From an uncultured archaeon (GTDB taxonomy: Archaea > Aenigmatarchaeota > Aenigmatarchaeia > CG10238-14), in NCBI GenBank assembly GCA_964392445.1, contig CAYMPD010000005.1, positions 1 through 29,747 on the forward strand: 29,747 bases of DNA, written 5' to 3'. Below the pieces are notes generated by a model. That model saw nothing but the letters and a program-made list of their open reading frames with translations, ran no database searches and was not told the origin of the DNA. A program made the position numbers and the translations under genes. This document shows positions 6,060-29,747 of the stretch, piece by piece (positions within the stretch are counted from its first letter, which is position 1; the number at the start of each line of letters is the position of its first letter).

Positions 6060-6101
6060 TTGTAAAAAAAATATTTTAAGTCCTAAAATCAAGTTTATTC
6101 T

Positions 6102-7541: not shown

Positions 7542-8231
7542 TCAGAGTTTCGGTAAATATTCTTTAAGCAACCCCCTTGGCTTCCCAGATTTCACTAATT
7601 CCCCATCTTCAATCACAACCATCCTATTACAAATATCGACCACCTCAAGAGCATCATGAGAAACATAAACCATAGTCAAACTATATTCCTTTCGTAAGGA
7701 TTTCAAAAGCTTTTTAATTTCATTTTTAAGATAAATATCAAGTGAAGATAAGGGCTCGTCCAGAAGAATTATATCCGATCTCTGTGCTAGTGATCTCGCA
7801 ATTGCTAATCTTTGTTTTTCGCCACCAGATAATTCTTCAGGTTTCGACTTGAGATGGTCTTCTAATCCAACCATTTTCAAGATATTTTCAATCTCTTTTC
7901 CACTATTCTTTCCCAAAATAAATTCCAAATGTTCCTCAGCATTCATATGCGGCCAAAGTGCTAAATCTTGAAAAATGAATGATATGTTTCTCTTCTCTGG
8001 CGGGGTAAACTTTTTTCCCGAGTTTACTCTTTTACCTCTCAAGTAAACATTACCAAAATCTGGTCTTTCCAATCCTGCAATAATCCTGAGAAGAGTTGTT
8101 TTTCCTGAACCCGAGGATCCGAATACACTAAATATCTCACCTTCTTTAACCTCAAGACTGATATCTTTCAATGCTTCTTTTCCATTAAACTCCTTACTAA
8201 CATTTGCCAGTCGAATTACATTATCAGTCAT
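7542..8231 (-). CDS. ABC importer ATP-binding subunit (FbpC/PotA-like, short form)
   Basis: GSSGSGKTT, FQDLALWPHM, LSGGEKQRL, ILLDEP, VSHD. At 229 aa it lacks a C-terminal regulatory extension. Confidence 0.93.
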   Translation of the reverse strand: MTDNVIRLANVSKEFNGKEALKDISLEVKEGEIFSVFGSSGSGKTTLLRIIAGLERPDFGNVYLRGKRVNSGKKFTPPEKRNISFIFQDLALWPHMNAEEHLEFILGKNSGKEIENILKMVGLEDHLKSKPEELSGGEKQRLAIARSLAQRSDIILLDEPLSSLDIYLKNEIKKLLKSLRKEYSLTMVYVSHDALEVVDICNRMVVIEDGELVKSGKPRGLLKEYLPKL

Positions 8232-9774: not shown

Positions 9775-9814
9775 TTTATCAAAGTTAATTTAATTCTTTA
9801 CCAATAAAAGGTTG

Positions 9815-10852: not shown

Positions 10853-10920
10853 GTTTAATACCTAACTAATATTAGGGGACAAAATATAAATTAACATTTA
10901 ACAAATTCAGATGTGCTTAA
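10853..10920. promoter_or_regulatory. Divergent promoter between the ABC importer and the pilin locus
   Basis: 68-bp gap with central AAAATATAAATT about 30 nt from both starts, and a perfect palindrome CTAATATTAG at 10866-10875. Confidence 0.5.
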
Positions 10921-12345: not shown

Positions 12346-12420
12346 TATTGGATTCTAAAAAATTGAAACCCTTCAACAACTTCTATAACTTTATTACCCA
12401 AAAAATAAATATTATAACTT

Positions 12421-13629: not shown

Positions 13630-13637
13630 TCGTAGAG

Positions 13638-14855
13638 ATGAAAAATATGTATTCAAAAGCACAGACTAATTTTTTCACAAAATTAATTTTCATTGTAGCA
13701 GCTGCTGTAGCATTTTTTCTAGTTTTTATGTACTTTAATTCTTTCAGAAAAGAGACAATTGAAGAAAAGGAAAGTTCAGATTTCAAAATGGGAGCGATGA
13801 ATGTTTTACAAAAATTGATTACTGATGAGAGTTGTCTAGCATATGAATATAATCAAACCCAGCGTAAAATAATTATAGACAAAAATAAACTGGATGTGTT
13901 CTCATCAGAATTTGATGAAGTAGAGCCAAATTGTAGTAAAGCTTTAGGTTTTGATTATAATATACAAATAGGTCAATTTCCACATAATTTTTCTCTTTAT
14001 CCAGAGGAGATCATTATTAACACTGAACCAGAATATTCTACAGATTTTGCTCAACACCAATGTAAAGTCAACCAAAATGAGGTTTTATACATCAAAATGA
14101 ATTTTCTCCCTACTGAAGAGATATGCACGAGATACAGTGAATTGGATATAGTTACCGGTACTAGGACGCTAGGTCTTTGTCCTGATGAATGCTACCCAGA
14201 TCCACTAGTAAATTGTCCTTACCCAGATCATAAAATGTGTGGTATTCCTTATCATTGTCCCGCAGAAAAATGTGAATGCATAGAGAATCAATTAGGTGCT
14301 CATCCATGGATAGTTACTTGTGACGAGGTTGATTTAGAAACCGATTGTACTCCGGTTTCAGCTGCGCATACTTGGTGCGGTAAAGTCGTAAAAGAAATCG
14401 AAGTGCCATCAGGACCTGTGATAGATGTTGATATAATGTCTACTGTTTGGAATTTTGGGTTATCAACAGGTACTGGAGTGAATTCGTTCTCACCAGAAAA
14501 AGCAAGAATAGAAGAAGTTCAATTATCGATTCCTGTAACAATAAGATATAATGAAAGTTTTTCAACAGAAGGTATGATATTTATGTATGCTGTTAGAGGA
14601 GAACTTGAAAGTTTTTATAGTTTATTAGAGGATATCTGTGAAAAGACTGAAAATGAAATTGATGTTAGTTTTTCTAAAAATTTTCATTTCTCTTATCCTG
14701 TTAGTTATAGTGAACCCGATCTCTGTATGTTGGATTCCTGTAAAAAATTTGTTTGTTCCTACGATCTAGATTTTGAAAATATAGAAAGTGAGGGTGATTA
14801 CGTTTTGAAATTTTCGTTAGATCATTCAAATAAAGTAATTAGGGTGGAAAAATAA
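13638..14855 (+). CDS. Pilin-like protein (SKA|QT), paralogue of 10921 with a 12-Cys insert instead of vWA
   Basis: Start is more likely ATG 13638 or 13647 than 13593. N- and C-terminal blocks align with the 10921 gene (KESSDFK, CLAY.YNQ, VEP.C.KAL.FDYN, PVTIRYNESFS.EG, CKKFVC.YDLDFENIE.EGDYVL). Confidence 0.82.
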   Translation: MKNMYSKAQTNFFTKLIFIVAAAVAFFLVFMYFNSFRKETIEEKESSDFKMGAMNVLQKLITDESCLAYEYNQTQRKIIIDKNKLDVFSSEFDEVEPNCSKALGFDYNIQIGQFPHNFSLYPEEIIINTEPEYSTDFAQHQCKVNQNEVLYIKMNFLPTEEICTRYSELDIVTGTRTLGLCPDECYPDPLVNCPYPDHKMCGIPYHCPAEKCECIENQLGAHPWIVTCDEVDLETDCTPVSAAHTWCGKVVKEIEVPSGPVIDVDIMSTVWNFGLSTGTGVNSFSPEKARIEEVQLSIPVTIRYNESFSTEGMIFMYAVRGELESFYSLLEDICEKTENEIDVSFSKNFHFSYPVSYSEPDLCMLDSCKKFVCSYDLDFENIESEGDYVLKFSLDHSNKVIRVEK

Positions 14856-15643
14856 TGGGACGGAAATTTTTATTAATATTTATAATATTTTTTCTTATTT
14901 TATTATTAAGTTTAGTGTTTTTTTTATTAAAAAAAGACGGTACCGAAGTCTTAAAGCCATCCCTTAACAAAAGTTTATGTGATTTTATAATAAATGAGAA
15001 CTTGGGAAAGTCATGTCAAGCCTTGATTTCGAAGGAAGCTAATATCTGTGAAGATGTAGGTAAATACAATACGCTCTGTTTCGAATGGATTTTAGGGTCA
15101 ATAAAACTCTCGGAAGATTATTGTAATAGAATAAAGAATAACTACGGAAAAATTGTTTGTTTCAGAAATCTAGTCGTCCAAGAGAGAGATCTGGATCTAT
15201 GTATGGAAAATGATGACTGTTTCATTCAAAGATTAAAAATAGCATCTTTAACTTCAAATGAGGAAATATGTAATTTTTTCTCGGGGGACGACTTCTATAA
15301 AAATTTATGTCTTGCAGAAACTAGTAATAACAGGAATTATTGTAAAGAAATAAGTGATGATTTTATGAAAAAATCCTGTTTAAGTTATTTTCCTGAGGGT
15401 TTAACCGATTGTGAAGTGGAAAATACTAGGGAAAAATGCCTGTATGAATTGGCATTTCAGAAAAAAGATCCTAAAATTTGTGAATTGATAAAATCTCCTT
15501 CAGGGAGAATCGAATGTGTTCTAAATATTAAAAATGACTTGAATATCTGTATGGAAAAGACAAGTGATATGAAAGATATCTGTATTATTTATTATCTAAG
15601 AAATGAATTAAAAATAAAGTCTGGTAGATTTGATGAGATTTAA
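14855..15643 (+). CDS. Membrane-anchored protein of Cys-pair helical repeats
   Basis: N-terminal TM, then recurring C-x(~9-12)-C units (e.g. CLYELAFQKKDPKICELIKSPSGRIEC). Starts at a TAATG overlap. Confidence 0.7.
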   Translation: MGRKFLLIFIIFFLILLLSLVFFLLKKDGTEVLKPSLNKSLCDFIINENLGKSCQALISKEANICEDVGKYNTLCFEWILGSIKLSEDYCNRIKNNYGKIVCFRNLVVQERDLDLCMENDDCFIQRLKIASLTSNEEICNFFSGDDFYKNLCLAETSNNRNYCKEISDDFMKKSCLSYFPEGLTDCEVENTREKCLYELAFQKKDPKICELIKSPSGRIECVLNIKNDLNICMEKTSDMKDICIIYYLRNELKIKSGRFDEI

Positions 15644-16415
15644 ATACATTATTCTCTTAGTCGTGTTCATAATATCAATAGTATATCTTTCATTTAATAG
15701 TATGAAATCTGAAGTTCCCTCAAATAGTGGTCTATGTAATGATATATCATCAGATAGGCTTAAAATGGTATGCTATGCAATGCTATTGAAAAATTATAGT
15801 TACTGTAAATTATCTTTAGATTTTACTCCTTACTGTTATGATACTGTTTTCCCTCTACTGGATGTTAGTAGAGAAATGTGCAACAAACTTGAAGATGAAG
15901 ATGCTAGATTGTCATGTTACACTAATTTAGCTGTTAAAGAAAGAAATGCGACTATATGCGAATACCTAAAAGGACCAAATCTCGCTGATATTTGCTATAT
16001 TAGAATTTTCGATTATGTTGATCAAATAGATAATATTGAGCTTTGTCAAAATATACCCCATCAGAGTACAAAGTTTGCATGTATGGCCAGTATAACTGGA
16101 GAAATAGGGTATTGTGACAACATAACAATCGAGATATTTGAAAAGGGTTATTGTCTAGCAACTATAACCCATGATGTAAATGATTGTTTTACAGGACAAG
16201 AATTAGGTGGTGCATTGTCACGTGTAACTTTCTCTTCATGTATTAGAAATGTAGCGATAAATACCGGCAATATTACTATGTGTGAAATGGTAGGTATATT
16301 GGAAGATAAGTGGAAATGCAGAATGGCTCTATCTGACTCTCAAGATATCTGTGAAGACGTACCAAGTCCCTACGACGATCTATGCAAATTAGAATACATA
16401 AAAAATAATATTTAA
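15633..16415 (+). CDS. Membrane-anchored protein of Cys-pair helical repeats (same repeat type as preceding gene)
   Basis: N-terminal TM, then repeats such as CYTNLAVKERNATICEYLKGPNLADIC. Overlaps the upstream stop. Confidence 0.7.
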   Translation: MRFKYIILLVVFIISIVYLSFNSMKSEVPSNSGLCNDISSDRLKMVCYAMLLKNYSYCKLSLDFTPYCYDTVFPLLDVSREMCNKLEDEDARLSCYTNLAVKERNATICEYLKGPNLADICYIRIFDYVDQIDNIELCQNIPHQSTKFACMASITGEIGYCDNITIEIFEKGYCLATITHDVNDCFTGQELGGALSRVTFSSCIRNVAINTGNITMCEMVGILEDKWKCRMALSDSQDICEDVPSPYDDLCKLEYIKNNI

Positions 16416-16438
16416 TGTAAAAATCACAATTCTATATC

Positions 16439-18511
16439 ATGGTTGAAAATGATACTGATTTCACATCCCCTTCCGGCAGATATTTTAAAATGTTTATCGA
16501 AGATGAAATAATCAAATTTTCTTTTTACGAGAAATTATGTAAGTTCTCTTATAAGTTCCTAAAAGTCAAATGCCCAAATTTTCTAAGAAAAAAACTTCAT
16601 GAGCCTATCTTTCTTTCAGATATGAAAATCACACCAGACCATGTTTTCTCTCTTAGTATTACTTCATTTATTTTATCATTCTTTATTTTCTTCTGGTTAT
16701 CATTCATAGACTTTCCATCGACATTAGTCCTGCTTATTTTCCCGTTCTTTATAGTTTATAATGTATTCACCTATCCACAATTCCACTCTGAAGTAATAAG
16801 GATAAGAGCTGGTAACGAAATTATAAGTATAATTTTGTACATAGTAACCTATTTATCATTGAACCCAGTTTTTGAAAAAGCCATTGAATTTGCTGCTTCA
16901 AGATGTCACGGCCCACTCGGAAATGATTTGAAAAAGGTTATTTGGGATATAGAATCAGGTAAATATGACAATATTGAAAAAGCATTGGCGATATACACTA
17001 GGAAATGGACTTTATGGAATGAAGAGTTTGTTAATTCTCTGGCTTTATTAAGATTAATAGAAATTCAAGCTACATTAGACGACAGAAATGAGATACTTCG
17101 CACGGCTGTTGAAAGGACAATGAGGAATGCTACCAACAAAATGGAAGAATATGCTTTCAACCTTAAAATGCCCTCAATGATGGTTCTTTTATTTGGTATT
17201 ACAATGCCTTTAATCGGACTTATTATGTTTCCTATGATCAGTATCTTTCTTACCCATGCCGTTAACCCCCTTTACATAGGACTTGGTTACACAGTATTTT
17301 TGCCGTTCTTCTTATGGTGGTTTCTTTATAGACTGATATCGAAAAGACCGGCAACATATTCACATTCAGAAAAGATAGAAGAAGTCCAACCAAGAAAATA
17401 TATAGAAATCAAAAAACTGAACTTAAAGATACCCATAGTTCTAATTGCATTCTTCATAGGCTTCCTAATAACAATACCTGGAATAATTTATTACATAGAA
17501 TTGGCTTCAGATCACTATCTTATTTTCTCCAGATATTCAGGACAAAAGGCTATAAACGAATGGGGGAATTATTGTCTGAGTAAATACGAGCCTGCAGTTA
17601 TGGTAAGAGATACTTTCAAAGCTATGACACTTATATGGGGTATTGGCGCCTTTGTCTTTCTTTTAACCTATCTTAAAACTAAAGGACCTTATGAATTTGA
17701 CTTGTACATAAGAAAACTCGAAGAAGATTTCACTGAAGGGTTATTTGAACTCCAAACCGCATTAAAGCAGAATATACCACTTGAAATTGCCATCCTCAAA
17801 GTCTCAGAGCAATATAAAAGACTTAAAAGGGAAAAAACTCCAGTTGCCAAGTTTTTTGCTGAATTTTATCAAATGTTATTAAAAACTGGGAGACCTACCC
17901 AAACTGTATTGTTTGGGAAAAACGGGTTAATAACAAACCTACCTTCCTCTATGATCAAAAATATAATGAGGATTATTACTAGTGCTCTTTACAAAGGTTC
18001 TGTAATAGCTTCGAGAGTAACCAAAAATATAGTTACTTATTTGAGGAGACTAAGGGAAATAGAACATATAATTAAGAAAAGTATGGCCGAAATAATTTCT
18101 AATTTAACTATGGCTGGAGGATTTATATCACCAGTAATAGCAGGAATAGTGGCTTCTTCTTCTGTAGTTATGGTCCAACTTCTTCAAGCGGTTGCAAGGG
18201 TACTGAAAACTATTGAGGATATGTACAGCCTCGGGACTGATGTTGGTGGATCTATGAGTGATACCTTAGGATTAATCAATCTTCAAAGTGTGATGCCTCC
18301 AACACTTATGCAGCTAATCGGTGGAATATACCTAATCGAGATTGTGATCATAATAAGCATATTTGTGACTGGAATAGATAGGGGCTTCAATAAAGTCTAT
18401 CGTGATCATATGATATCAAATCTTATAATTAAATCAATGATATGGTTTACTTTGGTCTTCTTTATAATGGTTCTGTTATTCCAACCGATAGTAAATCTTA
18501 TCAATCCGTGA
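16439..18511 (+). CDS. Type IV pilus/Tad membrane platform protein (T2SS-F family, fused TadB/TadC, ArlJ-like), copy 1
   Basis: 690 aa with two cytoplasmic-domain plus TM-bundle halves (EKAIEFAASRCHGPLGNDLKKV, ELQTALKQNIPLEIAIL). Sits among class III pilin genes. Confidence 0.85.
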   Translation: MVENDTDFTSPSGRYFKMFIEDEIIKFSFYEKLCKFSYKFLKVKCPNFLRKKLHEPIFLSDMKITPDHVFSLSITSFILSFFIFFWLSFIDFPSTLVLLIFPFFIVYNVFTYPQFHSEVIRIRAGNEIISIILYIVTYLSLNPVFEKAIEFAASRCHGPLGNDLKKVIWDIESGKYDNIEKALAIYTRKWTLWNEEFVNSLALLRLIEIQATLDDRNEILRTAVERTMRNATNKMEEYAFNLKMPSMMVLLFGITMPLIGLIMFPMISIFLTHAVNPLYIGLGYTVFLPFFLWWFLYRLISKRPATYSHSEKIEEVQPRKYIEIKKLNLKIPIVLIAFFIGFLITIPGIIYYIELASDHYLIFSRYSGQKAINEWGNYCLSKYEPAVMVRDTFKAMTLIWGIGAFVFLLTYLKTKGPYEFDLYIRKLEEDFTEGLFELQTALKQNIPLEIAILKVSEQYKRLKREKTPVAKFFAEFYQMLLKTGRPTQTVLFGKNGLITNLPSSMIKNIMRIITSALYKGSVIASRVTKNIVTYLRRLREIEHIIKKSMAEIISNLTMAGGFISPVIAGIVASSSVVMVQLLQAVARVLKTIEDMYSLGTDVGGSMSDTLGLINLQSVMPPTLMQLIGGIYLIEIVIIISIFVTGIDRGFNKVYRDHMISNLIIKSMIWFTLVFFIMVLLFQPIVNLINP

Positions 18512-18520
18512 GTGATTTTA

Positions 18521-18916
18521 ATGGAGATGTGGAATAAAATTTTAATGATTATCGTAGCAATAGTCTGTTTGATAGTAATATTAGGGGTGGGTTCTAAACT
18601 TTTCAGAGAAGGTATCAGAGAAACTGAAGATATAGAAGGTCATAAGAGTTTTGTTGTTGGGAGGATTTTGGACTTAGTATATGATTGTTTTAATGCGAAT
18701 GATGGAAAAAGAGGGAGTGTAATATGCGAAGAATTGACTATTAATTCCACGGAAACTATATCTTCCTCTGATATTTTGGATTCTATTGATACTTCAAAAA
18801 TTGAAAGGTCTAATTTAGAAGTTGATGATCTGGGGAAATCGGCTGAAATCATAATAAGGTACGAAAACCAAATCATATATGTCCAGAGGGTAGAGAATGA
18901 AAGGATTGGCACTTAG
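18521..18916 (+). CDS. Small pilin-like protein lacking a class III leader (CF..C scaffold, related to 19439)
   Basis: GAGTGAT SD-like sequence precedes ATG 18521. Hydrophobic N-helix. CFNANDGKRGSVIC and IIIRYENQIIYV align with CWDKTGERYEKDVIC and TIIRFEDISNKIIV of 19439. Confidence 0.72.
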   Translation: MEMWNKILMIIVAIVCLIVILGVGSKLFREGIRETEDIEGHKSFVVGRILDLVYDCFNANDGKRGSVICEELTINSTETISSSDILDSIDTSKIERSNLEVDDLGKSAEIIIRYENQIIYVQRVENERIGT

Positions 18917-19442
18917 TGTTGTTTGGGGTCTAGTAATAACTATTGCTAGCGTGATTTTTTTCCTTATGTTAGTTACAGGTACTTTTAAAAGAGCTGCAAA
19001 TTGGTTTTATTGTGATATTTATCTAAAAGTAATTGGATTTTTTACCGGAAGGGAGATAGCTTCTATTCCCGAGATGTGCCGGAATATGGGAAGAGATTAT
19101 TCGGTAGAAGTCGAGATAAAAGAAACAGATAATAAGATTGTTTCAAGAAGAATATTGGCTCTTATAATAACCTGTTGGAATGAAGCTGAATTAAAAGGTT
19201 TGTATGAAACCCATCCTTGTTATGAAGTAAAACTTCCTGGGAATATAGAAAATGTTTCTGAAAACAATATTTCGTTGATATTGAATGAAGAAGATCATTG
19301 TAAATCTATAGAAAATTCAGATTATGACTGTGGTGCCCATGATCAGATCATTTGGAATGTGGATGGTGGTGTAATAAACACTCAGAGGTTAATGTTAATA
19401 GAATATAATGGACCAAAAGATGCTGTAGAGGTGATAGGATGA
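18897..19442 (+). CDS. Pilin-like protein (MKG|LA), 'empty' CW..CY scaffold
   Basis: Class III leader plus hydrophobic helix. TCWNE...PCYEV...EEDHC..IEN...CGAHDQIIWNV motifs are shared with the 27889 gene. Confidence 0.8.
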   Translation: MKGLALSVVWGLVITIASVIFFLMLVTGTFKRAANWFYCDIYLKVIGFFTGREIASIPEMCRNMGRDYSVEVEIKETDNKIVSRRILALIITCWNEAELKGLYETHPCYEVKLPGNIENVSENNISLILNEEDHCKSIENSDYDCGAHDQIIWNVDGGVINTQRLMLIEYNGPKDAVEVIG

Positions 19443-19852
19443 GCAAGGGTTTGGCTTTAGAAACGGTTGTAAAGTGGATTATATATATTGTTGTCGCCGG
19501 TGTTGTTATCAATTTGGTATTCTTTTTTTATGATGATGTAAAGAGATATATTGAGACCAGCGTATTTAAACGTGAAAAAGATGTGCAAACAGAAAAAATA
19601 GAACAAGATTCTTTTTCAGCTGTCGAGGTTAGAATTTTTGTGAGGGCTTGTTGGGATAAAACTGGAGAAAGATATGAAAAAGATGTTATATGTTATATTT
19701 TGAAAGGGGATGTTAGTGGTGTTGATGGAAGTGATTTAGTGGGTGCCGTAGATTCACCAGCTCAAGTTGATGTGACTGAATTCGATAATTCCGCAACAAG
19801 TACTATAATAAGATTTGAGGATATTAGTAACAAAATCATTGTTGAGAGTTAG
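19439..19852 (+). CDS. Pilin-like protein (SKG|LA), CW..CY scaffold
   Basis: MSKGLALETVVKWIIYIVVAGVVI. ACWDK...VICYIL. ATGA overlap with the previous gene. Confidence 0.8.
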   Translation: MSKGLALETVVKWIIYIVVAGVVINLVFFFYDDVKRYIETSVFKREKDVQTEKIEQDSFSAVEVRIFVRACWDKTGERYEKDVICYILKGDVSGVDGSDLVGAVDSPAQVDVTEFDNSATSTIIRFEDISNKIIVES

Positions 19853-19858
19853 GTCTGT

Positions 19859-21307
19859 ATGAAGGGTGTTTCAAGTTGGTTTTGGATAGCTGCGGGTGTT
19901 GTAGCAGGACTGGTAGTCTTTTCTATCGCTTACACTCAGATAGCTGAACTCAATAAAGCCAAGAATGAACAGAGGGCTTTGGAGCAATTTGATGAAGTTA
20001 AAAATATTATAAACAATCTCTGTTGGACATTTTCCGGAAACAAGAGAGAATATGAAGTTAGTCTAACCAAAAGTATAGAGGGATTTTATGTTGCTGAAAC
20101 CAAGTATACCGAATACACGAAAGAGGAAATGGTAAGTAAAATAATTGATCAGGAGGAAACTACTGGTGATTTTCTTTGTATTAAGGTTGAAGGTAAAAGA
20201 TTAAGATGTCAAGAGCTTTATTGTAACACAACTATGCCTTTTATGGGGTCAGTACCAGAGGGCTATTCACTTAGTGCACTTGTAAATGAAATGTTAGGTA
20301 GAGGAGAGATTTTCAATTATCCACTCAAGTTTGAGAAGAAGGATACTGATGTTGAAGTTAATTTAGGGGGATTTTCTGAAGGAGGGACTGTTACAACTGT
20401 TCCTGGGGGTTCAACTACTACTAATCCAAGTACCACAACAACTTCGAGTACAACTACGACTAGTACCATAACAACAACTACTATAGCTAACCCGTATGTC
20501 ATAGCTCTAATACCTGCTTATTACTCTTCAACTGCTCTAAGTAATGATTGGTCTCAAAGAGCGAATCACATAAAAAACTTTTTAGAACGGACACTACCTT
20601 TTCGAGAAAATTTAGCTATTCTAAAAGTTCTTATAGATAATAAAAATTGCAATTTAAATCATGAACAAGATACTTTTAATTTAATAAATTGTGGGAATTC
20701 TTTGGCTTCAGCTAATGGTTATGCAGGTGCAGACTTAGTAGGAGGTATTTATGGTCAGTGTTTTCTTGATGGATGTGGGGGTGTTATCGGACAGACAGAG
20801 CCTGGTTCTGGTTGGTTTATACATGGTTATGACACATGTGCTACGCCTGGTTATACTTGCCCTTCAAATCAAGATTCTGTTGTGGCCTCTCATGAAACAG
20901 GACATAATTTTAATTTATGTGAAGGTTATTGTTACAGCGGAACTTTCTCCTGTTATTATCCAGAAAGAGTCAGTTTTGGAGGATATTGTGGTTCCTCTCG
21001 AATAGAGCAGAAATTTCCAGGGCCTTATCCATCGAATTCTGGGACAATGGATGCCCCATGTGGAAATTGTGGACCAGATACTTGCTGCCTCGGAAGAATT
21101 TTGAATGGTGATACCATTAATCCTATTTCAAATGGAAGGGATGTCATGGGTCCTGGGCAGCCTAATCCAAACAGAGAATTTGCCTGTGATAGTTATCTTG
21201 CTTTTAAAGACGTAGCTGTAAATAATTATAACTTTGATTTAACCCCAGTTAGTCAACAAGAAATTGATGATTGTTATAATCATATATCAGGTGACACCTA
21301 TCCATAA
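19859..21307 (+). CDS. Pilin-like protein (MKG|VS) fused via a Thr-rich linker to a zinc metallopeptidase domain (M64/IgA-peptidase-like)
   Basis: Class III leader, globular pilin-like domain, Thr stretch, then ...FLERTLPFRE... and ASHETGHNFNLCEGY (HExxH at 20891) with a downstream DVMG Met-turn-like motif. Family assignment is tentative. Confidence 0.75.
   Translation: MKGVSSWFWIAAGVVAGLVVFSIAYTQIAELNKAKNEQRALEQFDEVKNIINNLCWTFSGNKREYEVSLTKSIEGFYVAETKYTEYTKEEMVSKIIDQEETTGDFLCIKVEGKRLRCQELYCNTTMPFMGSVPEGYSLSALVNEMLGRGEIFNYPLKFEKKDTDVEVNLGGFSEGGTVTTVPGGSTTTNPSTTTTSSTTTTSTITTTTIANPYVIALIPAYYSSTALSNDWSQRANHIKNFLERTLPFRENLAILKVLIDNKNCNLNHEQDTFNLINCGNSLASANGYAGADLVGGIYGQCFLDGCGGVIGQTEPGSGWFIHGYDTCATPGYTCPSNQDSVVASHETGHNFNLCEGYCYSGTFSCYYPERVSFGGYCGSSRIEQKFPGPYPSNSGTMDAPCGNCGPDTCCLGRILNGDTINPISNGRDVMGPGQPNPNREFACDSYLAFKDVAVNNYNFDLTPVSQQEIDDCYNHISGDTYP
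20387..20482 (+). repeat. Low-complexity Thr/Ser-rich linker (ACN codon run)
   Basis: Encodes TVTTVPGGSTTTNPSTTTTSSTTTTSTITTTT. Confidence 0.85.
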
Positions 21308-22040
21308 TAAAATTAATCTTCTAAAGTGTAAAAAGTTTTGCCTATTAGTTATATTTCTAATTTTTATTTTACCTACTTGTTTATCTGTAAATCATGATGG
21401 AACTATTTCTTTAGTAATTGAATTTCATAAAAATGATCCTACATTAACAAGTTTAAAATCTATAAATTATACCGAAACCACGTACGAAAATTTCTTTACT
21501 GGTAAAGGAAGAGGTAATTATTCAATAAAAATATCTGATAAGACTAATAATGTTTTATATAGTGAAAAATTTAATATAATTTTCTTGAAATATTTGAGAA
21601 CTCTAGAAGGGACTATAGTAGAAGAGCTGAACAGTAGCATTAAGTCATTTAGACTTAAGAGGCCAGAAGAATCTTACTATATTAAATTTTATAAAAATAA
21701 TGAACTAGAACTGGAAATTGATTTATCTGAATATCTTTGTGATAATAATGGAGAATGCGAAAAAGATATTGGGGAAAATGAATATATTTGTCCATTAGAT
21801 TGTCAAACTATATCTGAAAATGTATGCGGAAATGGGATATGTGAAACTGAAGAAACCAAAAATAATTGCCCAGAAGATTGTTTAGAAGATATAAATGTAG
21901 ACGGTGAAAAAAGAGGGGTCCCTTGGTTATTTTTAGGTATTTTTGGAGGAATTTCCATCTTCATCTTACTAATATTCCTTTTAACAAAAAAAACTAGTAA
22001 AAAAGATGACTTCAAAAAACTCAAAAAAAAGTGGGGATAA
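21267..22040 (+). CDS. Secreted Cys-repeat protein with C-terminal membrane anchor (partner 1)
   Basis: Hydrophobic signal, beta-rich domain, CDNNGEC..GENEYICPLDC and CGNGICETEETKNNCPEDC repeats, C-terminal TM plus Lys tail. Start uncertain (ATG 21267 or GTG 21291); both overlap the upstream stop. Confidence 0.72.
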   Translation: MIVIIIYQVTPIHNKINLLKCKKFCLLVIFLIFILPTCLSVNHDGTISLVIEFHKNDPTLTSLKSINYTETTYENFFTGKGRGNYSIKISDKTNNVLYSEKFNIIFLKYLRTLEGTIVEELNSSIKSFRLKRPEESYYIKFYKNNELELEIDLSEYLCDNNGECEKDIGENEYICPLDCQTISENVCGNGICETEETKNNCPEDCLEDINVDGEKRGVPWLFLGIFGGISIFILLIFLLTKKTSKKDDFKKLKKKWG

Positions 22041-22081
22041 AGATTTTATCAGAAAATCACAAAACTATTCTTAGGTAAACA

Positions 22082-23443
22082 ATGTCAGCATCAGAATTTT
22101 TAACTATAATTGGAGTTATCCTAGTCGGCTTACTCTTTTTTGCAATAGCCAGAAATTATATTTTTGGAGAGGGAGTAAAAACTAAAGAGTACGGATACAA
22201 AGCTGATGCCCAAGAAATAATAGCACTAATAGAAAAAGTTTCTGGAGAACCTAATGAATTTACTATGTATTGTCAAGATATATCTCTATGTGACATCGAA
22301 GTTAAAGGTGGGATTTTAACATATGAAAAAAATGATTTCAAATATTCTTATCCAATATCCAAAAATTTAGAAGAGGTAACAATGGAAGAAGTAACTAGAA
22401 TTTGTGTAATCAATCAGAATAAGAGTGTCACTTTGCATGGAGGGAGTGTTATTTGTATTCTTGATACTAGGTGTACTCCTGAGGAGTGTTTGGAAGATTG
22501 TTTGGACTGTTATGGTCCTGACGATGTTTGTGTGGGTGATGGTTATTGTAATCCGTATATTGGAGAAAATTGCAGAACTTCTCCTGATGATTGTCAATGT
22601 GATCCTGAAAAAATCTGTTGTCCGGAATCCTTCGATGCTGATGAGAATGGATGTTCTGAGACTGTGGATATTGTAAGAGGTAATGAATGTTGGTGTAATG
22701 AACAATGTGAGGGAAGTTTGGAATGTAATCCTACTACCGATGATTTCAGTGATTATGCTAATGCTTGTTGTGAATCTGGTAAAGGATGGGATGGTACCGA
22801 ATGTAAAGAATTGGACGTACTTGATTTTTTCATTATACCTGTTGGGATATCTGACCCAGGTAATTATAATAACATCGCAAATCAGTTTATAGATCATTTT
22901 GTAGCAACATCTCCATTTAGAGATTGTAGTGATATAAAAGATAGAATAAAATTTTGGATAATAGAACCATCTGACTGTCCATCATCTGCTCAGACATCAT
23001 ATTGTGATCACTGCTCAAGTTGTATTAATATAGGAAGATCATGTGCGAGAAGAATGGAATCTATTTATGGAGTAGCTTTTGATAAATTCGCTGTTTTAAC
23101 GGAAAGTGGAGGGTGGAATGGCGGATGCGCAGGTAATATTCCGAATGATGGCTCTTCATCTAGTCTAATCCCTTGTAGTTTATCAGGTAATTGTGTTCCT
23201 ACACACGAAACGGGACATACATTAGGATTAGGTCATGTAAATTGTGGGGTCGCTTGTCATGCTTGTTCTTATAATAATCCAAATTGTCCAGACTGTGATC
23301 ATCCAGATAGGGCTGAATTTATAATGGATTATTGTACACCAATGCGAAGATTCGGACCAGAAGGTTATAATTTCCTAAAAACACAATATATAGGTACATC
23401 TCCACATAATCAGGGTTTAGCAAGGTGGTTAGAAGGATGTTAA
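22082..23443 (+). CDS. Pilin-like protein without class III leader, with Cys-rich spacer and metzincin-type zinc metallopeptidase domain
   Basis: MSASEFLTIIGVILVGLLFFAIA, Cys-rich middle region, LDFFIIPVG...FVATSPFRD (M64-like strand/helix), THETGHTLGLGH (HExxHxxGxxH, 23204-23236), FIMDY Met-turn. Confidence 0.8.
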   Translation: MSASEFLTIIGVILVGLLFFAIARNYIFGEGVKTKEYGYKADAQEIIALIEKVSGEPNEFTMYCQDISLCDIEVKGGILTYEKNDFKYSYPISKNLEEVTMEEVTRICVINQNKSVTLHGGSVICILDTRCTPEECLEDCLDCYGPDDVCVGDGYCNPYIGENCRTSPDDCQCDPEKICCPESFDADENGCSETVDIVRGNECWCNEQCEGSLECNPTTDDFSDYANACCESGKGWDGTECKELDVLDFFIIPVGISDPGNYNNIANQFIDHFVATSPFRDCSDIKDRIKFWIIEPSDCPSSAQTSYCDHCSSCINIGRSCARRMESIYGVAFDKFAVLTESGGWNGGCAGNIPNDGSSSSLIPCSLSGNCVPTHETGHTLGLGHVNCGVACHACSYNNPNCPDCDHPDRAEFIMDYCTPMRRFGPEGYNFLKTQYIGTSPHNQGLARWLEGC

Positions 23444-24279
23444 AATTACGAAAATTATTGCTTATAGTTATTTTAGCTTTATTTATAATGAAAATAGGAT
23501 ACTCAAACCAAGAAATATTTTCTGTATTGTTTGATATATATAAAGACGACACTGTTGTACTTAAAGAAATAAAGTTAGTGGAATTAGAGGGAGTAAATTT
23601 TAATGAGGGAGAAGGAAAGTATTCCTTTATCCTATATTCCCAAGAGGAAGTATTATACGAAAATAAAAGATCTATAAAATTCCAAGTACATAGGGATATA
23701 ATCGATCCAGAAACAGGAGAAATGTACGAGGAAAACATAGAAATTAACCCTCAAGAAATATACATAAGATTGCCCTACTATAGAGATGCAGAAAGAATAG
23801 AACTTAAGCATTCAAATGATTTAATTTTCAGTTATGATATTTGTCAAATAAATGATAATTGTGATATCAGTAAAGGCGAAAATCCTTTTAATTGTCCTTC
23901 AGACTGTCAAAAACCAGTAGAATGCGGGAATGGAATTTGTGAAGAAGGTGAAACTCAAGGTAATTGCTGTCAAGACTGTGGATGCCCGGAAGATATGGAA
24001 TGTGAAGATGGAGAATGTGTTTATGATAAATGTGGTAATGATATATGTGAGCCAAGTTTTGACGAGAATTACAATACATGTCCTGAGGATTGTCCTTCAG
24101 GAAGTGAAGATGGTTATTGTGATGGTAAAGCAGATAATAAATGCGATCCAGATTGCGCGGAAGAAGAGGATATAGATTGCATAAAACCTAAAAATAGAAT
24201 ATTCATTTACGTCTTAATCGGAGTCATCTTTTTAGTTATCACTTTACTAATTGTAATTTTAAGCGGGAGAAGCTCATGA
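23437..24279 (+). CDS. Secreted Cys-repeat protein with C-terminal membrane anchor (partner 2, paralogue of 21267)
   Basis: ATG 23437 after AAGGTGG. Signal peptide, same beta-rich domain (GEGKYSF..Y....VLYE), CGNGICEEGETQGNCCQDC-type repeats, C-terminal TM. Confidence 0.75.
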   Translation: MLKLRKLLLIVILALFIMKIGYSNQEIFSVLFDIYKDDTVVLKEIKLVELEGVNFNEGEGKYSFILYSQEEVLYENKRSIKFQVHRDIIDPETGEMYEENIEINPQEIYIRLPYYRDAERIELKHSNDLIFSYDICQINDNCDISKGENPFNCPSDCQKPVECGNGICEEGETQGNCCQDCGCPEDMECEDGECVYDKCGNDICEPSFDENYNTCPEDCPSGSEDGYCDGKADNKCDPDCAEEEDIDCIKPKNRIFIYVLIGVIFLVITLLIVILSGRSS

Positions 24280-24758
24280 AAGGATTCGTAGAACAGATGA
24301 TTTATTTGATAGTAATAGTTTTAGCGCTCTTTATGCTAATTGTTTTCTTTACTTATCAAAGAGGTAGTAGAGGAGTTGAAACAAAAAAATCTGTTGAGGA
24401 AAGAGGATTAGATGAAGAAGGTACGAGTCTTGTCTTTACTCTATTCAACAACAAACTCCCTTATGTGGAAAAGGTTTATTTGCAAGTTATAATTGACGCT
24501 ATACTAGAAGGAGAATATAGAAAGGAAGAGAAGTACAAAGTTTTTTACGGAAAAGGAATAGGTGAGGTAAACCTCACAGAAATAATACCACCGTTGATGG
24601 ACAATTATGCTAAAGGAAGATGGGAATTAAAAATTACAACACCAGACGGCGACTATACCTACGGAGGAATAAACAAAGACAAAGTAATATACATCTACGA
24701 AGCTCTAATACCTGTTCCTGAAGAAAGAAGTGGTAAGATTACATTTTTCCTCGGTTAA
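24276..24758 (+). CDS. Small pilin-like protein (MKG|FV)
   Basis: MKGFVEQMIYLIVIVLALFMLIVFF. ATGA overlap with the previous gene. Confidence 0.72.
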   Translation: MKGFVEQMIYLIVIVLALFMLIVFFTYQRGSRGVETKKSVEERGLDEEGTSLVFTLFNNKLPYVEKVYLQVIIDAILEGEYRKEEKYKVFYGKGIGEVNLTEIIPPLMDNYAKGRWELKITTPDGDYTYGGINKDKVIYIYEALIPVPEERSGKITFFLG

Positions 24759-24778
24759 AAAATTTATTCTGAACTAGT

Positions 24779-24790
24779 AAAACTTATATT
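24779..24790 (+). promoter_or_regulatory. Putative BRE/TATA (AAAACTTATATT) upstream of the 24812 gene
   Basis: A-rich BRE-like run plus TTATAT about 22 nt upstream of the ATG. Confidence 0.45.
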
Positions 24791-24811
24791 GGAATAAATC
24801 AAAAGAATTAA

Positions 24812-25705
24812 ATGATGAAAGGACAAGCGAGTTTGGAAATGGTAGTTGGTTTGATAATTCTCTTAGTTGTAGCAGGGGTTGTAATAGGACTAGTTATTCA
24901 TTTTATAAATCCTCGAAGAATGCCAAACCCAGAAGAAAAATTGAGTGTGAATGAATTCTTAACCAATTGTGAACAATATTGTAATGATATTAATTCTGTG
25001 GAATATTGTAGAGATTATTACTCTGGGATTGATTGGAATAAAAATGGTATAAAACATGAAATTTTGGAGCTGGGTAAATATAATTGGATGACATGTGAAG
25101 ATAGGGTTTATTGTTTCCTTGTTGAGCCATGTGAAGAGAGATTTGGAAGAGGCTTGGATGTAATGAAGAAATGTAAGAGAGTGTTGTGTCAAACCTATTT
25201 GGAAAAATATAGTGGAGATGCTGATATGGCAACCCAGGCATTGAAAGATGATATAAACTTTCCTATGGTATGTGATTTAAGTGAGATACCTAATGCAGAT
25301 AATTGGTATGAAATTGTGTTTGCGGAGGGATGTGGTGCAGAGGCCCCCCAACAATTTTCGATTAACAGCCTTTCAAACTGTATTATAGATAATAACGATC
25401 CAAGTAACCCTACATTTACCTGTGACGTTGAATATACTGGGGATTTGTCAGATACAAAATATATAATTGTAGTACCTGATGAGCAAGGACATCCTGTAAT
25501 GGCTAATGAAACAATAGGAAGTGTTAGATTTGTCGGTGATACCCTGGAAGGAGATTTGAATTATGTGCCAGACCTCTTAGATTGGAATGAGAACTTCGTT
25601 GAAGGTGATCTAGTAAATGGTTTATGTGCATTTGCTTTTGTTTGGGGAGCAGGAGATGGTGAAAGTATTGAAACCGAAGAATGTGAGATCGTAAATACAC
25701 CTTAA
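24812..25705 (+). CDS. Pilin-like protein with canonical KG|QASLE motif, Cys-rich domain and acidic C-terminal domain
   Basis: MMKGQASLEMVVGLIILLVVAGVVIG (Q+1, E+5). CEQYC..., DWNKNG loop, acidic beta-rich tail. Confidence 0.82.
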   Translation: MMKGQASLEMVVGLIILLVVAGVVIGLVIHFINPRRMPNPEEKLSVNEFLTNCEQYCNDINSVEYCRDYYSGIDWNKNGIKHEILELGKYNWMTCEDRVYCFLVEPCEERFGRGLDVMKKCKRVLCQTYLEKYSGDADMATQALKDDINFPMVCDLSEIPNADNWYEIVFAEGCGAEAPQQFSINSLSNCIIDNNDPSNPTFTCDVEYTGDLSDTKYIIVVPDEQGHPVMANETIGSVRFVGDTLEGDLNYVPDLLDWNENFVEGDLVNGLCAFAFVWGAGDGESIETEECEIVNTP

Positions 25706-25761: not shown

Positions 25762-27885
25762 ATGTCAATATTAGAGAAAATACTCGGAAATAAAGAAAAT
25801 TATAACCAACAGGAAATAGAAAGACGAGCTAGAGAATATTCACCTAAAGCTCCTGAGAAGCCCAAAAGATCCTTCTTTGAAAAAGCATGTAAATTCGCTG
25901 GGAAAACACTAAATATAAAAGCACCAGAAGGGATCCGAGAAAAACTAAATAAATCCATTTTAATGCTGGATCTTGATATTACTCCAGACAGTGTAGTTTC
26001 ATTGACTGTACTAACTTTTGTTGTTTCAATTATAACAATTATACCTCTATTTTTCCTAGTAAAAGGGTTCAATATATTCCTACCATTTTTACCTTTAATC
26101 GGGACTTATTTTATTTACACATATCCTAGTTATCTGGCAACAGTTACCAAGATTAGAGCGTCTGATGAGACTGTTAAAGTGATACTTTACATGGTCATTT
26201 ATCTTAGATTCAATCCACAGTTAGAGGGAGCTATGAGCTTTGCTGCTGAGCATTGTCATGGCCCGATAGGGAAGGATTTGAAAGAACTTGTATGGGGTAT
26301 GGAAGGTGGACAATATCTAAACCTGAAAGAAGCACTAAGTACCAAAATGGAGAAATGGTTGATTTGGGATAAAGAATTTGTTGAATCGATGAATTTACTT
26401 TTATCAATGACAAGAATAGGATCGGGGGATGTGAGAAATAAGACTTTGAACAAAGCTCTATCTTATATCCTTACCTCGACTTACGAAAAGATGAAAGAAT
26501 ATAGCCGAAATTTAAGATCCCCGATAACATTGATACATAGTATGGGTATAACTTTTCCTTTGATGGGTTTGGTAATGTTTCCAATGATATCGATTTTTCT
26601 ACATGATCAACTCAATCCTTTTTACCTTGGAATCGGTTATATTGTGATATTGCCTTCAATTTTGTATTTTTATTTGAAAAGAACTATTTCTAAAAGACCT
26701 GGTGCCTTTTCTTCACCGGATATATCTGACCACCCTGACCTGCCTCCAAAAGGAAAATTCGAACTAAATCTCCCCAATAAAAAAATCCTTATTCCTGTTC
26801 TTTTTGTTTCAATACTAGTTGTCATTTATAGTTCTATTCCAGGTATTATTCACTTCATAAATTTAGGTTCAAGTTATTTTGGTTTCAAAAAGAATCCTAT
26901 GACTTTTACAGAGAATTGGAGAAATTATCTTAGTGCCCAGTATAAACCGGATAATTTATTTAGGTTAACTTTTTATTGTTTGAGTATAGTTTGGGGGATT
27001 GGGTTTGGAATTGTGGTTTATACTTTAGGTTCAAGTGTTCAGCGCCTTAAAATAAGAGACCAAATTAAAGAGATAGAAGACGAATTTCAGGTTGCATTAT
27101 TCAACCTAGCAGATGTTTTATCCTCGGGTATACCAGTAGAAACTGCTTTAGAAGAGGTTTCAAAGAAGTACAAACAATCCAAGATGACTAGTTCTCCTAT
27201 GTATTCTTTCTTTGTTGATATGTTGAGAAACATGAAAAACATGGGGATGACTTTTGAAAGGGCTGTATTTGATAGAAAATATGGTGCTATTGTAAGGTTC
27301 CCTTCAAAGTTAGTTCAGGACATAATGAAAATAATTGTTTCAGCGTCAAGGAAATCTTCATTGATACTTTCTGTAGCGACAAGATCAATATCTGACTTTC
27401 TTTCTAAAACTAAAAACATCGAATCTATGTTAAAACAAATGCTAGAGGAGATATCATCCGCCCTTAAACTTCAAGCTCAATTCATCGCTCCTTTCATCTG
27501 CGCTATTGTTGCAACTATGGCTACATTTATAATTGAATTACTACAAATGATAGCTGAGTTTTTGGTTTCTATTGAGGAAACTTTTAATATGGGTGGAACT
27601 TTCATACATAGCGGAACAACTCAATTTTCCCAGAGTCTTAGTATGGTGAATCTTGAAAAGGTGATGCCGCCAACTATATTTCAACTGATAATAGGTATAT
27701 ACATGATAGAGATTGTGGTTATACTTTCTTACTTTTTGAATGGGATAAGAAATGGTTTTGATGAAACTACAAGAAATGTGATGATTGGTAAAACACTTGT
27801 AACTTCGTTGATACTTTACTCAGTTATACTTTTGATATCATTATTCTTAACTAAGAGTATGACTCCAGTGTTCGGAGGACTGTAA
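25762..27885 (+). CDS. Type IV pilus/Tad membrane platform protein (T2SS-F family, fused TadB/TadC, ArlJ-like), copy 2
   Basis: 707 aa. Aligns end to end with the 16439 gene (FAAEHCHGPIGKDLK, GLVMFPMISIFL...LNPFYLGIGY, ISKRP, VMPPT.FQLIIGIYMIEIV). Confidence 0.85.
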   Translation: MSILEKILGNKENYNQQEIERRAREYSPKAPEKPKRSFFEKACKFAGKTLNIKAPEGIREKLNKSILMLDLDITPDSVVSLTVLTFVVSIITIIPLFFLVKGFNIFLPFLPLIGTYFIYTYPSYLATVTKIRASDETVKVILYMVIYLRFNPQLEGAMSFAAEHCHGPIGKDLKELVWGMEGGQYLNLKEALSTKMEKWLIWDKEFVESMNLLLSMTRIGSGDVRNKTLNKALSYILTSTYEKMKEYSRNLRSPITLIHSMGITFPLMGLVMFPMISIFLHDQLNPFYLGIGYIVILPSILYFYLKRTISKRPGAFSSPDISDHPDLPPKGKFELNLPNKKILIPVLFVSILVVIYSSIPGIIHFINLGSSYFGFKKNPMTFTENWRNYLSAQYKPDNLFRLTFYCLSIVWGIGFGIVVYTLGSSVQRLKIRDQIKEIEDEFQVALFNLADVLSSGIPVETALEEVSKKYKQSKMTSSPMYSFFVDMLRNMKNMGMTFERAVFDRKYGAIVRFPSKLVQDIMKIIVSASRKSSLILSVATRSISDFLSKTKNIESMLKQMLEEISSALKLQAQFIAPFICAIVATMATFIIELLQMIAEFLVSIEETFNMGGTFIHSGTTQFSQSLSMVNLEKVMPPTIFQLIIGIYMIEIVVILSYFLNGIRNGFDETTRNVMIGKTLVTSLILYSVILLISLFLTKSMTPVFGGL

Positions 27886-27888
27886 TAA

Positions 27889-29747
27889 ATGAAAGGAATG
27901 ACATTGGAAACGATGGGATTTGTACTCATTGCTTTATTTGGAGTTTTCGTATTGATCGTCTTTATCACTGGTTCTTTAGGTGAGTTAGGTAGAAACGTGA
28001 TTTGTTATTTTTATCAAAATGTTCTTTCACAAGATTTGGATATGTGTGAGACAAGAATAACTGCTTCCGTTAAGAAAACAATTAGACCAGAAGATTCAGA
28101 GGATTTGGCTAGAGAAATAGCTGCTCATTCTATTATTTGTTGGGAAGAGTCCGTGAAATCATTAAAAACCAAAGATACTTATTGTTACAATTTGATGATA
28201 GAAGGTGGGCCGTTCAGCCCTGGTGCAGATGAAATAGATGTGACTGATATTCTTTTAGAAGAAGGAGGATGTAATAGATTGGAAAATTATTATATTGACA
28301 GTAATTGTGGGAATGAAGACCAATTAAGATGGGAAGTTGGTGGCCCTGGTTTCTTTCCTTGGGAGAATAGGGGTATTGATGCTGGGTGGTTGGATCCTTG
28401 TGGTACAGTTAATATTACCAATGGTAGATGGATGTGGTCATGGGATGGAAACAGTTGGTCTGATCCTGTTGATCTCTCTACTATTGAACCTTGGAAATCG
28501 ATTCCTATATCTGGAGTTGGTTATAGGCCTTGGGAGAATGGTGGGATAGATGCTGGGTGGTTGAGTAGTGATGGGATAATAGGAATAACAAATGGTAAAT
28601 GGGCGTGGAACTGGGATGGGAGTAATTGGAATGGTCCGTTTGATCTTTATGAAAGTGAATACTGGGGGGATGAGTATCATGCAGAACATGGGATGGAACC
28701 TTGTCCTGAGGGACATTATCCTTGGGAGGGAAAGGGTATTGATTCTGGTTGGACTGACCCCAATGGTATCACAAATATTACTAATGGTAGATGGATGTGG
28801 AGTTGGGACGGAGATACTTGGTCTGATCCTATTGACATGTCTGAGACTCCTCCATGGGATTCTATCCCTATATCTGGAGTTGGTTATCTTCCATGGGAAA
28901 ATGGTGGAATAGATGCTGGGTGGTTGAGTAGTGATGGTAAGGTTGGGGTAACAAACGGTAAATGGGCATGGAATTGGGATGGGAGTTCTTGGAGTGATGT
29001 AGTTGATTTGGAGACAGTCTGGAGTACTGTTAAAAAATCTGATAATTGTCTTTACAGCAGTGAATGTAGTATAACAGATCAAAAATTAGTTCTGATTAAG
29101 TATGATGATGTCAACAAACAAATAGTTGTGAAAGCAGGTGAAGGTCAAGTTACTACTAGTACTGTTGGACCTGGGGTAACAACCACAACAGTAAGTGGTA
29201 CTACTACAACAACTGGATTAGGTTCTGGCTGTATTTTTGGTTCACCATGTACTTCAGGTTGGCCTGGTCATGAAGGGGGGATAAGGGAATTTAATGAAGA
29301 TGTGTATGCATGTGATGTCTTTGAGGTATGTGACCCTGACTTACAATTTATTGCAGACGAGGCTATTGATTGTTGTGAAAATGGTTGTTCATCATCTTGT
29401 CATGGCTATTGCTCCCAAGCAAGAAAAGATTCAGGTATATGTAATGATATGGGGGTATGTGAACCTAATCCTAGTTCAATGAAGGTCAAAAAATGTTCTG
29501 CGTTTTATCTTGCATTGGGTTTAGGCCAAGCCGCAGATATTATGAATGGCTACTATCAGGAAGAGATTGATTGTGCAAATCCTGATATTACTGTTACTGA
29601 TTGTGGATTTCCAGGACTTCAATGTAAGGGCTGCCTTGATGTTAGTTATAATCCCCCTTCTAGTGACGATCCTGAAATTTTATGTGGTTGGTCATCTGAC
29701 CCCAACGCCGATACTGATATGAGTAAAAATAGTTGTTATATGTCAGA
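27889..29747 (+). CDS. Large pilin-like protein (MKG|MT): CW..CY scaffold with four-repeat hemopexin-like insert, Thr linker and Cys-rich C-terminal domain (truncated by window edge)
   Basis: Hand translation, open from ATG 27889 to the window end (619 full codons): MKGMTLETMGFVLIALFGVFVLIVFITG...AHSIICWEES...YCYNL...EEGGCNRLEN...CGNEDQLRWEV-[insert]-ITDQKLVLIKYD...VTTSTVGPGVTTTTVSGTTTTT...CCENGC... Not in the ORF track. Confidence 0.88.
   Translation, partial: MKGMTLETMGFVLIALFGVFVLIVFITGSLGELGRNVICYFYQNVLSQDLDMCETRITASVKKTIRPEDSEDLAREIAAHSIICWEESVKSLKTKDTYCYNLMIEGGPFSPGADEIDVTDILLEEGGCNRLENYYIDSNCGNEDQLRWEVGGPGFFPWENRGIDAGWLDPCGTVNITNGRWMWSWDGNSWSDPVDLSTIEPWKSIPISGVGYRPWENGGIDAGWLSSDGIIGITNGKWAWNWDGSNWNGPFDLYESEYWGDEYHAEHGMEPCPEGHYPWEGKGIDSGWTDPNGITNITNGRWMWSWDGDTWSDPIDMSETPPWDSIPISGVGYLPWENGGIDAGWLSSDGKVGVTNGKWAWNWDGSSWSDVVDLETVWSTVKKSDNCLYSSECSITDQKLVLIKYDDVNKQIVVKAGEGQVTTSTVGPGVTTTTVSGTTTTTGLGSGCIFGSPCTSGWPGHEGGIREFNEDVYACDVFEVCDPDLQFIADEAIDCCENGCSSSCHGYCSQARKDSGICNDMGVCEPNPSSMKVKKCSAFYLALGLGQAADIMNGYYQEEIDCANPDITVTDCGFPGLQCKGCLDVSYNPPSSDDPEILCGWSSDPNADTDMSKNSCYMS
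28357..29010 (+). repeat. Four Trp-rich hemopexin-like repeats arranged AB-AB (363-bp duplication unit)
   Basis: PWENRGIDAGW..ITNGRWMWSWDG, PWENGGIDAGW..ITNGKWAWNWDG, PWEGKGIDSGW..ITNGRWMWSWDG, PWENGGIDAGW..VTNGKWAWNWDG. Units begin at 28357 and 28720 and are similar at the DNA level. Confidence 0.85.

Follow-up and report, generated by a model that had tools for sequence, protein, structure and literature searches.

We analysed a stretch of 29,747 nucleotides (the window) from an uncultured archaeon of the Aenigmatarchaeota, positions 1 to 29,747 of contig CAYMPD010000005.1 in assembly GCA_964392445.1. The subject here is the plus-strand gene that begins at position 27889, in whose product a small scaffold domain appears to be interrupted, in a single loop, by a whole beta-propeller. 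Directly upstream, with a spacing of 3 bases, a gene on the same strand (25762-27885) encodes a platform-like polytopic membrane protein of 707 amino acids with a T2SSF-like match (Pfam T2SSF, E = 1.9e-5). The original prediction for this locus, read from the letters and their open reading frames (ORFs), had let the gene at 27889 end at 29133; translation does not bear this out, because the frame has no stop there, leaves the window and stops only at contig position 30087, giving a protein of 732 residues, 34 of which are masked by a run of 100 N just past the window end. For this protein and for a second, 181-residue protein encoded at 18897-19442 on the plus strand, the motifs and coordinates first read agree with the translations, with an insert at residues 151-394 and returning scaffold strands at residues 395-415.

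The protein can be divided into successive parts. A short basic leader, M-K-G, is followed by a hydrophobic stretch that begins the long N-terminal helix (27889-27969), an arrangement that resembles a class III, or prepilin-like, signal. Together with an alpha/beta head that has six conserved cysteines, the N-terminal helices make up the first part of the scaffold (residues 1-150, 27889-28338), which is delimited by BLASTP, by profile matches to more than 100 scaffold proteins and by a confident model. The insert of 244 residues follows (28339-29070), a predicted four-bladed propeller of the hemopexin fold recognised from its repeats, its model and its fold matches; repeat alignment and a repeat hidden Markov model (HMM) place the blades at about 28357-28536, 28537-28728, 28729-28899 and 28900-29061. 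The returning strands occupy 29071-29133 and are assigned by homology, model confidence and predicted docking. Beyond residue 415 the protein continues for 317 residues, in which a Thr/Gly-rich linker (residues 416-447, 29134-29229) leads to a Cys-rich, possibly transglutaminase-like C-terminal domain (29230-29747 in the window, extending to contig position 30087). The 181-residue protein is an insert-free paralogue of the scaffold, and its four-residue loop at 19362-19373 is the equivalent of the insertion site.

The scaffold and the propeller within it

The two proteins had been predicted to share one scaffold, and BLASTP together with family profiles supports this: residues 1-157 of the 181-residue protein align with residues 1-152 of the 27889 protein at 27% identity (E = 1e-12). 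An exhaustive search with a scaffold profile returned 168 cluster representatives at E ≤ 0.001, of which about 20 among those listed are propeller-only proteins, since the profile also contained the insert. Among the 150 matches listed, most are 165-200 residues long and align over the N-terminal 150 positions; many of them align over the last 22 or so positions as well, with nothing between. Across the family Cys 39, 53, 84, 128 and 140 are invariant and Cys 99 is nearly so. Judged from these searches, the scaffold is an unannotated, DPANN-specific family of Aenigmarchaeota and of genomes of the Woesearchaeota/Nanobdellota type.

The strands that follow the insert, which contain the motif ITDQKLVLIKY, were likewise predicted to belong to the scaffold. 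Taken alone, the 11-residue match between the C-terminal ends of the two proteins is not significant (BLASTP, E = 0.37); it becomes significant because family information is added, in the form of a profile and of the ends of orthologues. A C-terminal profile of 22 positions, built from 65 insert-free family members only and run unfiltered against the 3,518 ORFs of the genome, finds residues 395-415 of the 27889 protein at E = 1.9e-5 (20.8 bits). Its other matches are the 181-residue protein, itself part of the profile, and a further scaffold protein on the contig (33539-35047, E = 0.0033), with the best unrelated ORF at E = 0.15. In a word-based search two orthologues of 434 residues each, P0004 and P0005 (the latter from an Aenigmarchaeota assembly), cover all 415 residues at 53% and 49% identity and then end, on the same terminal strands as the 181-residue protein.

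Predicted structures agree with this assignment. The module of 415 residues, folded with AlphaFold2 (AF2) from a 63-row alignment, has a mean predicted local distance difference test score (pLDDT) of 78.6 and a predicted template modelling score of 0.64; an alignment that mixed scaffold and propeller segments misplaced the propeller rows and was left out of the folding. Block-mean pLDDT is 75-98 over the scaffold part and residues 396-415, and 86-95 over residues 396-415 themselves. The model begins with a long N-terminal helix (helices 3-27 and 31-45, with a kink at the invariant Gly 28) and continues into the small alpha/beta head with strand 61-65, helix 70-90, strand 97-104, helix 115-124 and strand 146-148; four groups of three to four strands follow, and then strands 400-406 and 411-414. 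The model of the 181-residue paralogue (AF2 pLDDT 91.3), compared by secondary-structure order and not by superposition, has its helices and strands in the order seen in the scaffold portions of the 27889 protein, without the insert. When residues 28-152 and 386-415 were predicted as a complex, they scored 0.81, whereas the best of three controls scored 0.31; the mark used for this score is attained in 58 of 80 solved complexes and in 2 of 110 mismatched pairs, counts that hold only roughly here because an alignment of our own was used. Contact agreement between the docking runs was at least 86% and partner pLDDT at least 77, and the contacts of lowest error pair residues 400-405 with 99-103 and 411-414 with 145-148, packing against helix 77-89. 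The docking supports, without proving, that the returning strands would complete the head sheet. Homology, predicted structure and comparative genomics together support an arrangement in which one loop before the last scaffold strands holds the propeller and the strands after it complete the head.

The insert itself consists of four tandem repeats of about 55-65 residues, of which the first is similar to the third and the second to the fourth (repeat alignment and repeat HMM). Foldseek places hemopexin-like domains at the top of the matches to its model (MMP-2, E = 3.4e-9, TM score 0.74 by target). VIA aligns 25 hemopexin-fold chains over model residues 147-389 at Z 14.9-20.1, whereas the next fold, with other propellers included, reaches at most Z 8.2. 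These chains are legume albumins and lectins, matrix metalloproteinases (MMPs), vitronectin and hemopexin, superposed with a root-mean-square deviation (rmsd) of 2.4-3.0 Å over 161-195 residues, the best being 3oyo (Z 20.1, rmsd 2.4 Å over 193 residues). Searched against PDB sequences, a profile built from 18 members of the family gives a weak but consistent relation, in that hemopexin and MMP hemopexin domains come first (1qhu, E = 4.2e-4; 1hxn, 8e-4; 1pex, 1.2e-3), most of the 16 matches listed are hemopexin-fold proteins, and the D-A motif of the repeat is aligned with V-D-A-A of hemopexin. The earlier description of the insert as hemopexin-like can therefore be kept for the predicted fold, though not for the PF00045 threshold, which is not reached: on the model and the weak profile matches, the insert is a predicted hemopexin fold of a distant prokaryotic branch and, by Pfam's rule, no member of PF00045. 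The further claim that the loop accepts a whole propeller agrees with the four predicted blades and with the four strand groups of the AF2 model.

Two cysteines of the insert, Cys 387 and Cys 392, are kept in all three loaded proteins. The repeat family occurs in about 20 other proteins, mostly in fours, fused to Glyco_hydro_cc, GH130/GH43, DUF11 or HINT domains. Tandem Repeats Finder detects no tandem DNA array in 28200-29200, and therefore the four blades appear to be old duplications rather than recent DNA repeats. We considered a recent foreign origin of the insert, whose GC content is 0.44 against 0.34. The GC content at third codon positions is ordinary (0.316, against 0.24-0.35), and we rejected recent transfer because the rise stems from codon position 2, that is, from amino-acid composition. 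Separately, an ORF of 214 residues runs on the minus strand at 28438-29082, antisense to the propeller repeats, and is most likely a shadow frame of these Trp/Gly/Pro-rich repeats and no gene.

Contents of the loop among relatives

Of the 118 genomes of the order, 28 contain a match, and within the genus orthologues can be compared at a single slot, directly after the platform gene. The propeller form stands in this slot in the present genome (732 residues) and in one congener (G006, 434 residues, identical to P0005). Two other congeners have empty orthologues in the same slot, with loops of only three or four residues: 183 residues in G007, with 61% identity over the scaffold, and 184 residues in G008, with 46%. 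In a further congener (G005) the same loop, between the same flanks, holds an insert of 191 residues made of three Cys-rich repeats of about 62 residues and unrelated to the propeller; this orthologue is split over two contig ends (L012:3-851 and L010:10-357) that share 24 identical overlapping residues. The tally for this slot within the genus is thus an empty loop in two genomes, the propeller in three sequences and the Cys-rich insert in one genome. These congeners, and not the 181-residue protein, supply the true empty orthologues: the original prediction had taken the latter as the empty counterpart, and it proves to be a distant paralogue of another subfamily, at the 27% identity given above.

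The subfamily of the 181-residue protein carries insertions at this loop as well. Six of its representatives, all metagenomic (P0008, P0012, P0015, P0018, P0023 and P0041), have an unannotated domain of about 90-100 residues there, shorter in P0023 and P0041. Because P0008 is 62% identical to the 181-residue protein over scaffold columns, the latter may have lost such an insert, or its relatives may have gained one. At a second insertion site, between the N-terminal helix and the head (profile positions 72-153), an additional 60 to about 600 residues are present in P0079, P0084, P0091-P0093, P0103, P0105, P0113, P0115, P0123, P0124, P0127, P0129, P0135 and P0149; an example of such an insert behind the helix is the protein of 738 residues from Woesearchaeota, P0084 itself coming from a Woesearchaeota metagenome-assembled genome. 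In some members cargo is instead appended at the C-terminus. Pfam assigns no family to the proteins with the insert of about 95 residues, to the second-site proteins or to the Cys-rich repeats of G005, the RING-like matches being sub-threshold noise.

A maximum-likelihood tree of scaffold-only columns, whose root is set by the chosen outgroup, recovers the propeller forms as a single clade (98/87), which has the empty form of G007 as its sister (100/97) and lies nested among empty forms. With the root so chosen, the simplest history is one in which the propeller was gained once. The comparison as a whole shows the loop to be a recurrent insertion site.

Two other accounts of the loop have to be weighed against this one. 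If the protein were simply an N-terminal domain with a propeller appended, the likeness between residues 395-415 and the C-terminal end of the 181-residue protein would be chance, as the E-value of 0.37 for the pairwise match of 11-12 residues would by itself allow; this is contradicted by the significance of the profile, by orthologues that end on these very strands, by the high model confidence and by the controlled docking, and the same flanks surround three different loop contents, so that we give this account hardly any credence. It is also conceivable, if improbable, that the propeller is ancestral in the orthologue group, with the empty congeners and P0007 as deletion derivatives and the loop a site of loss. 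In favour of such a history are the dependence of the root on the chosen outgroup and the availability of only five genomes of the genus. Against it, empty forms enclose the loaded clade at three successive levels (support 93-100), a length of 165-200 residues, that of insert-free forms, prevails among the scaffold representatives listed, and repeated gain accounts better for the presence of three unrelated inserts at a single site.

A broader proposal, which we offer tentatively and would rate as somewhat doubtful, is that the last loop may be a general socket in which close species swap unrelated binding modules. The contents seen so far are the propeller, the Cys-rich triple repeat and the domain of about 95 residues, and the second insertion site and the C-terminal linker fusions stand beside them. 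The filament tip would then be a modular, fast-diversifying device for recognition of hosts or substrates, with a role like that of the receptor-binding tips of phage tail fibres, and could set the partner specificity of an episymbiont.

Pilin-like features and possible function

That the scaffold is a pilin was also part of the original prediction, and here the evidence is divided. Leaders in 65 family members are 0-23 residues long, and in the 58 rows filled at the two positions before the hydrophobic stretch, K or R stands at the first in 46 and G or A at the second in 48. The long N-terminal helix before a small head adds to the resemblance. A T2SSF-like gene is adjacent to the scaffold gene in all loci examined, namely here and in five other loci; in the window itself, both the 27889 protein and its 181-residue paralogue follow a membrane protein of about 700 residues with a borderline T2SSF match. 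Three Peptidase_A24 and five T2SSE matches are found genome-wide, on other contigs. The K-G motif, the helix and the T2SSF-like adjacency speak for the earlier claim; against it, neither a pilin family model nor a solved pilin fold gives a match. Pilin-like is the best reading of the scaffold, and from the motif, the helix and the adjacency we infer that it may be a filament subunit. With regard to the two platform-like proteins (16439-18511 and 25762-27885), we note that neither receives an NCBIfam name and that they form a divergent platform family.

We consider it likely that the gene at 27889 encodes a surface protein of 732 residues built on a small, DPANN-specific, pilin-like scaffold, in which the propeller occupies the last loop of the head, between the strand that ends in W-E-V and the two C-terminal strands, the scaffold strands return, and a second, Cys-rich cargo is appended; the filament role is the part that we infer. 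In such a protein the K-G leader would be cut by one of the three A24 peptidases of the genome, and the N-terminal helix would enter a structure like a type IV filament (T4F), which the neighbouring platform protein would assemble together with an ATPase whose gene lies elsewhere. A position at the tip, or the role of a minor subunit, is probable because the subunit is bulky. At the tip the propeller may bind a ligand and so act in adhesion; glycans are possible ligands, since other proteins join repeats of this family to glycoside hydrolases.

Several observations weigh against this picture. Neither an ATPase nor a prepilin peptidase is encoded within the window, and the T2SSF score of the adjacent platform protein falls just below the Pfam cut-off (25.1 against 25.2 bits; the protein at 16439-18511 scores 24.9 bits). 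No pilin family model matches the scaffold (no match in Pfam at E ≤ 0.1, none relevant in NCBIfam at E ≤ 1), and scans of the 181-residue paralogue against these two collections likewise gave nothing usable. The scaffold head, taken from the model of 181 residues, has no Foldseek match at E ≤ 0.001 among solved structures, pilins included; its best VIA match is to unrelated folds (Z 5.0), and the ESM Atlas, searched by features and by shape, returns only unnamed DPANN clusters at a TM score of 0.5. For the insert, PF00045 has no match to residues 150-395 up to E = 10, and even the orthologue P0005 remains sub-threshold (19.6 bits against a cut-off of 21.3, E = 8.8e-4). Confidence in the propeller model is moderate, with block-mean pLDDT mostly 60-84 and loops below 50, and every structural statement rests on predictions. 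As to the ligand, the fusions to glycoside hydrolases are a mere association.

The main rival of the pilin-like reading keeps the architecture and drops the filament: the helix would be a membrane anchor, or would feed an envelope-embedded assembly like the bindosome, and the scaffold would be a pedestal for binding or enzyme modules at the cell surface. The absence of a matching pilin model, a head that matches no solved pilin and a leader of only three residues in the 27889 protein speak for this possibility, as does the reported rarity of ordered T4F loci in DPANN (PMC13705601). We nevertheless regard it as rather unlikely, for the K/R-G/A motif is kept before the hydrophobic stretch whatever the length of the leader, the T2SSF-like adjacency is conserved, the genome has A24 peptidases and T2SSE ATPases, and the modelled long N-terminal helix with its small head is the layout of a pilin.

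Several known systems come close to this arrangement. [quoted passage not shown] The insertion principle is thus already known. As in these proteins, a pilin-type N-terminal helix precedes a small head in the 27889 protein, a whole domain is placed inside the head sheet, and the extra domain interrupts the head, with scaffold strands resuming after it by homology and by the model; GspK and ComZ are thought to be minor subunits at the tip that add a binding function. The present protein differs from them in that it belongs to a DPANN archaeon, matches those pilins in neither sequence nor fold, carries a hemopexin-fold insert and is only a putative filament subunit; moreover, the loop of its orthologues is empty or holds other domains, and a C-terminal module is appended as well. 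[quoted passage not shown] The class III signal peptide binding proteins of the Saccharolobus bindosome, which are proposed to functionalise the T4F machinery, also join a prepilin-like N-terminus to a non-pilin functional domain (PMC13705601). There, ABC-transporter substrate-binding proteins are fused directly after the helix, while in the 27889 protein the small head is the scaffold and the cargo lies in a loop of the head. A survey in the same work describes the T4F genes of DPANN as scattered and reports binding proteins that bear class III signal peptides (PMC13705601).

The insert in turn shares its four blades with hemopexin-fold domains such as the C-terminal domains of MMPs, vitronectin, serum hemopexin and the legume seed albumins and lectins (3oyo, 3lp9, 3s18), and its repeats open, as in hemopexin, with a hydrophobic-D-A-(A/G) motif. 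Unlike the known domains, it is only 12-18% identical to them, has longer repeats (55-65 residues) with a Trp-rich signature, and is set in a pilin-like scaffold. A literature search that joined hemopexin, archaea and pilin found no paper. What is new is the archaeal DPANN scaffold family, its hemopexin-fold cargo, and the series of orthologues in which the cargo of a single loop is present, absent or replaced.

An attached life on other cells is generally assumed for DPANN archaea, and to our knowledge the molecules that make this contact are almost unknown. The locus offers a concrete candidate, in a scaffold family whose members differ mainly in the content of one loop. The empty, propeller and Cys-repeat forms within one genus amount to a natural experiment that puts domain insertion to a direct test; it shows that the loop tolerates a domain of 190-250 residues and gives matched constructs for work on structure and binding. 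The findings would extend the idea of the modular pilin, so far bacterial, to the Archaea, add a prokaryotic branch of the hemopexin fold beyond what Pfam captures, and offer protein engineering a small display domain that is rich in disulfides and has a loop proven to be permissive.

Appended cargo and neighbouring genes

The C-terminal extension of the 27889 protein is a Thr-rich linker with a Cys-rich cargo added to the end of the scaffold. Its only clear homologue is P0160 from Aenigmarchaeota (44% identity, E = 2.1e-39), in which the Cys-rich domain stands behind a Thr linker and a different pilin-like N-terminus; because of this difference, the same Cys-rich cargo is seen on two scaffolds. 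In P0160 the domain has a weak match to Transglut_core (PF01841) that stays below threshold (E = 0.013, 16.2 bits against a cut-off of 23), and residues 448-732 of the 27889 protein, with 34 of them masked, have no Pfam match. The stretch expected to hold the catalytic-type cysteine coincides with the masked 100 N, and from sequence the domain is possibly transglutaminase-like.

Further genes of the scaffold family lie downstream on the same contig, at 33539-35047 and 35647-36219. The first encodes a protein of 502 residues in which the terminal strands of the scaffold lead directly into a Thr-rich linker, followed by a large cargo at the C-terminus. In two related loci (L003 and L004) the platform and propeller genes directly follow a PhageMetallopep gene; compared with these, the present locus has about 20 kb extra between the PhageMetallopep and platform genes (about 6100-25700 of the window), which hold an ABC transporter, the vWA-bearing pilin-like gene, the first copy of the platform gene, the 181-residue paralogue and metallopeptidase-like genes. 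FtsZ and PCNA are among the genes of the window, which is archaeal.

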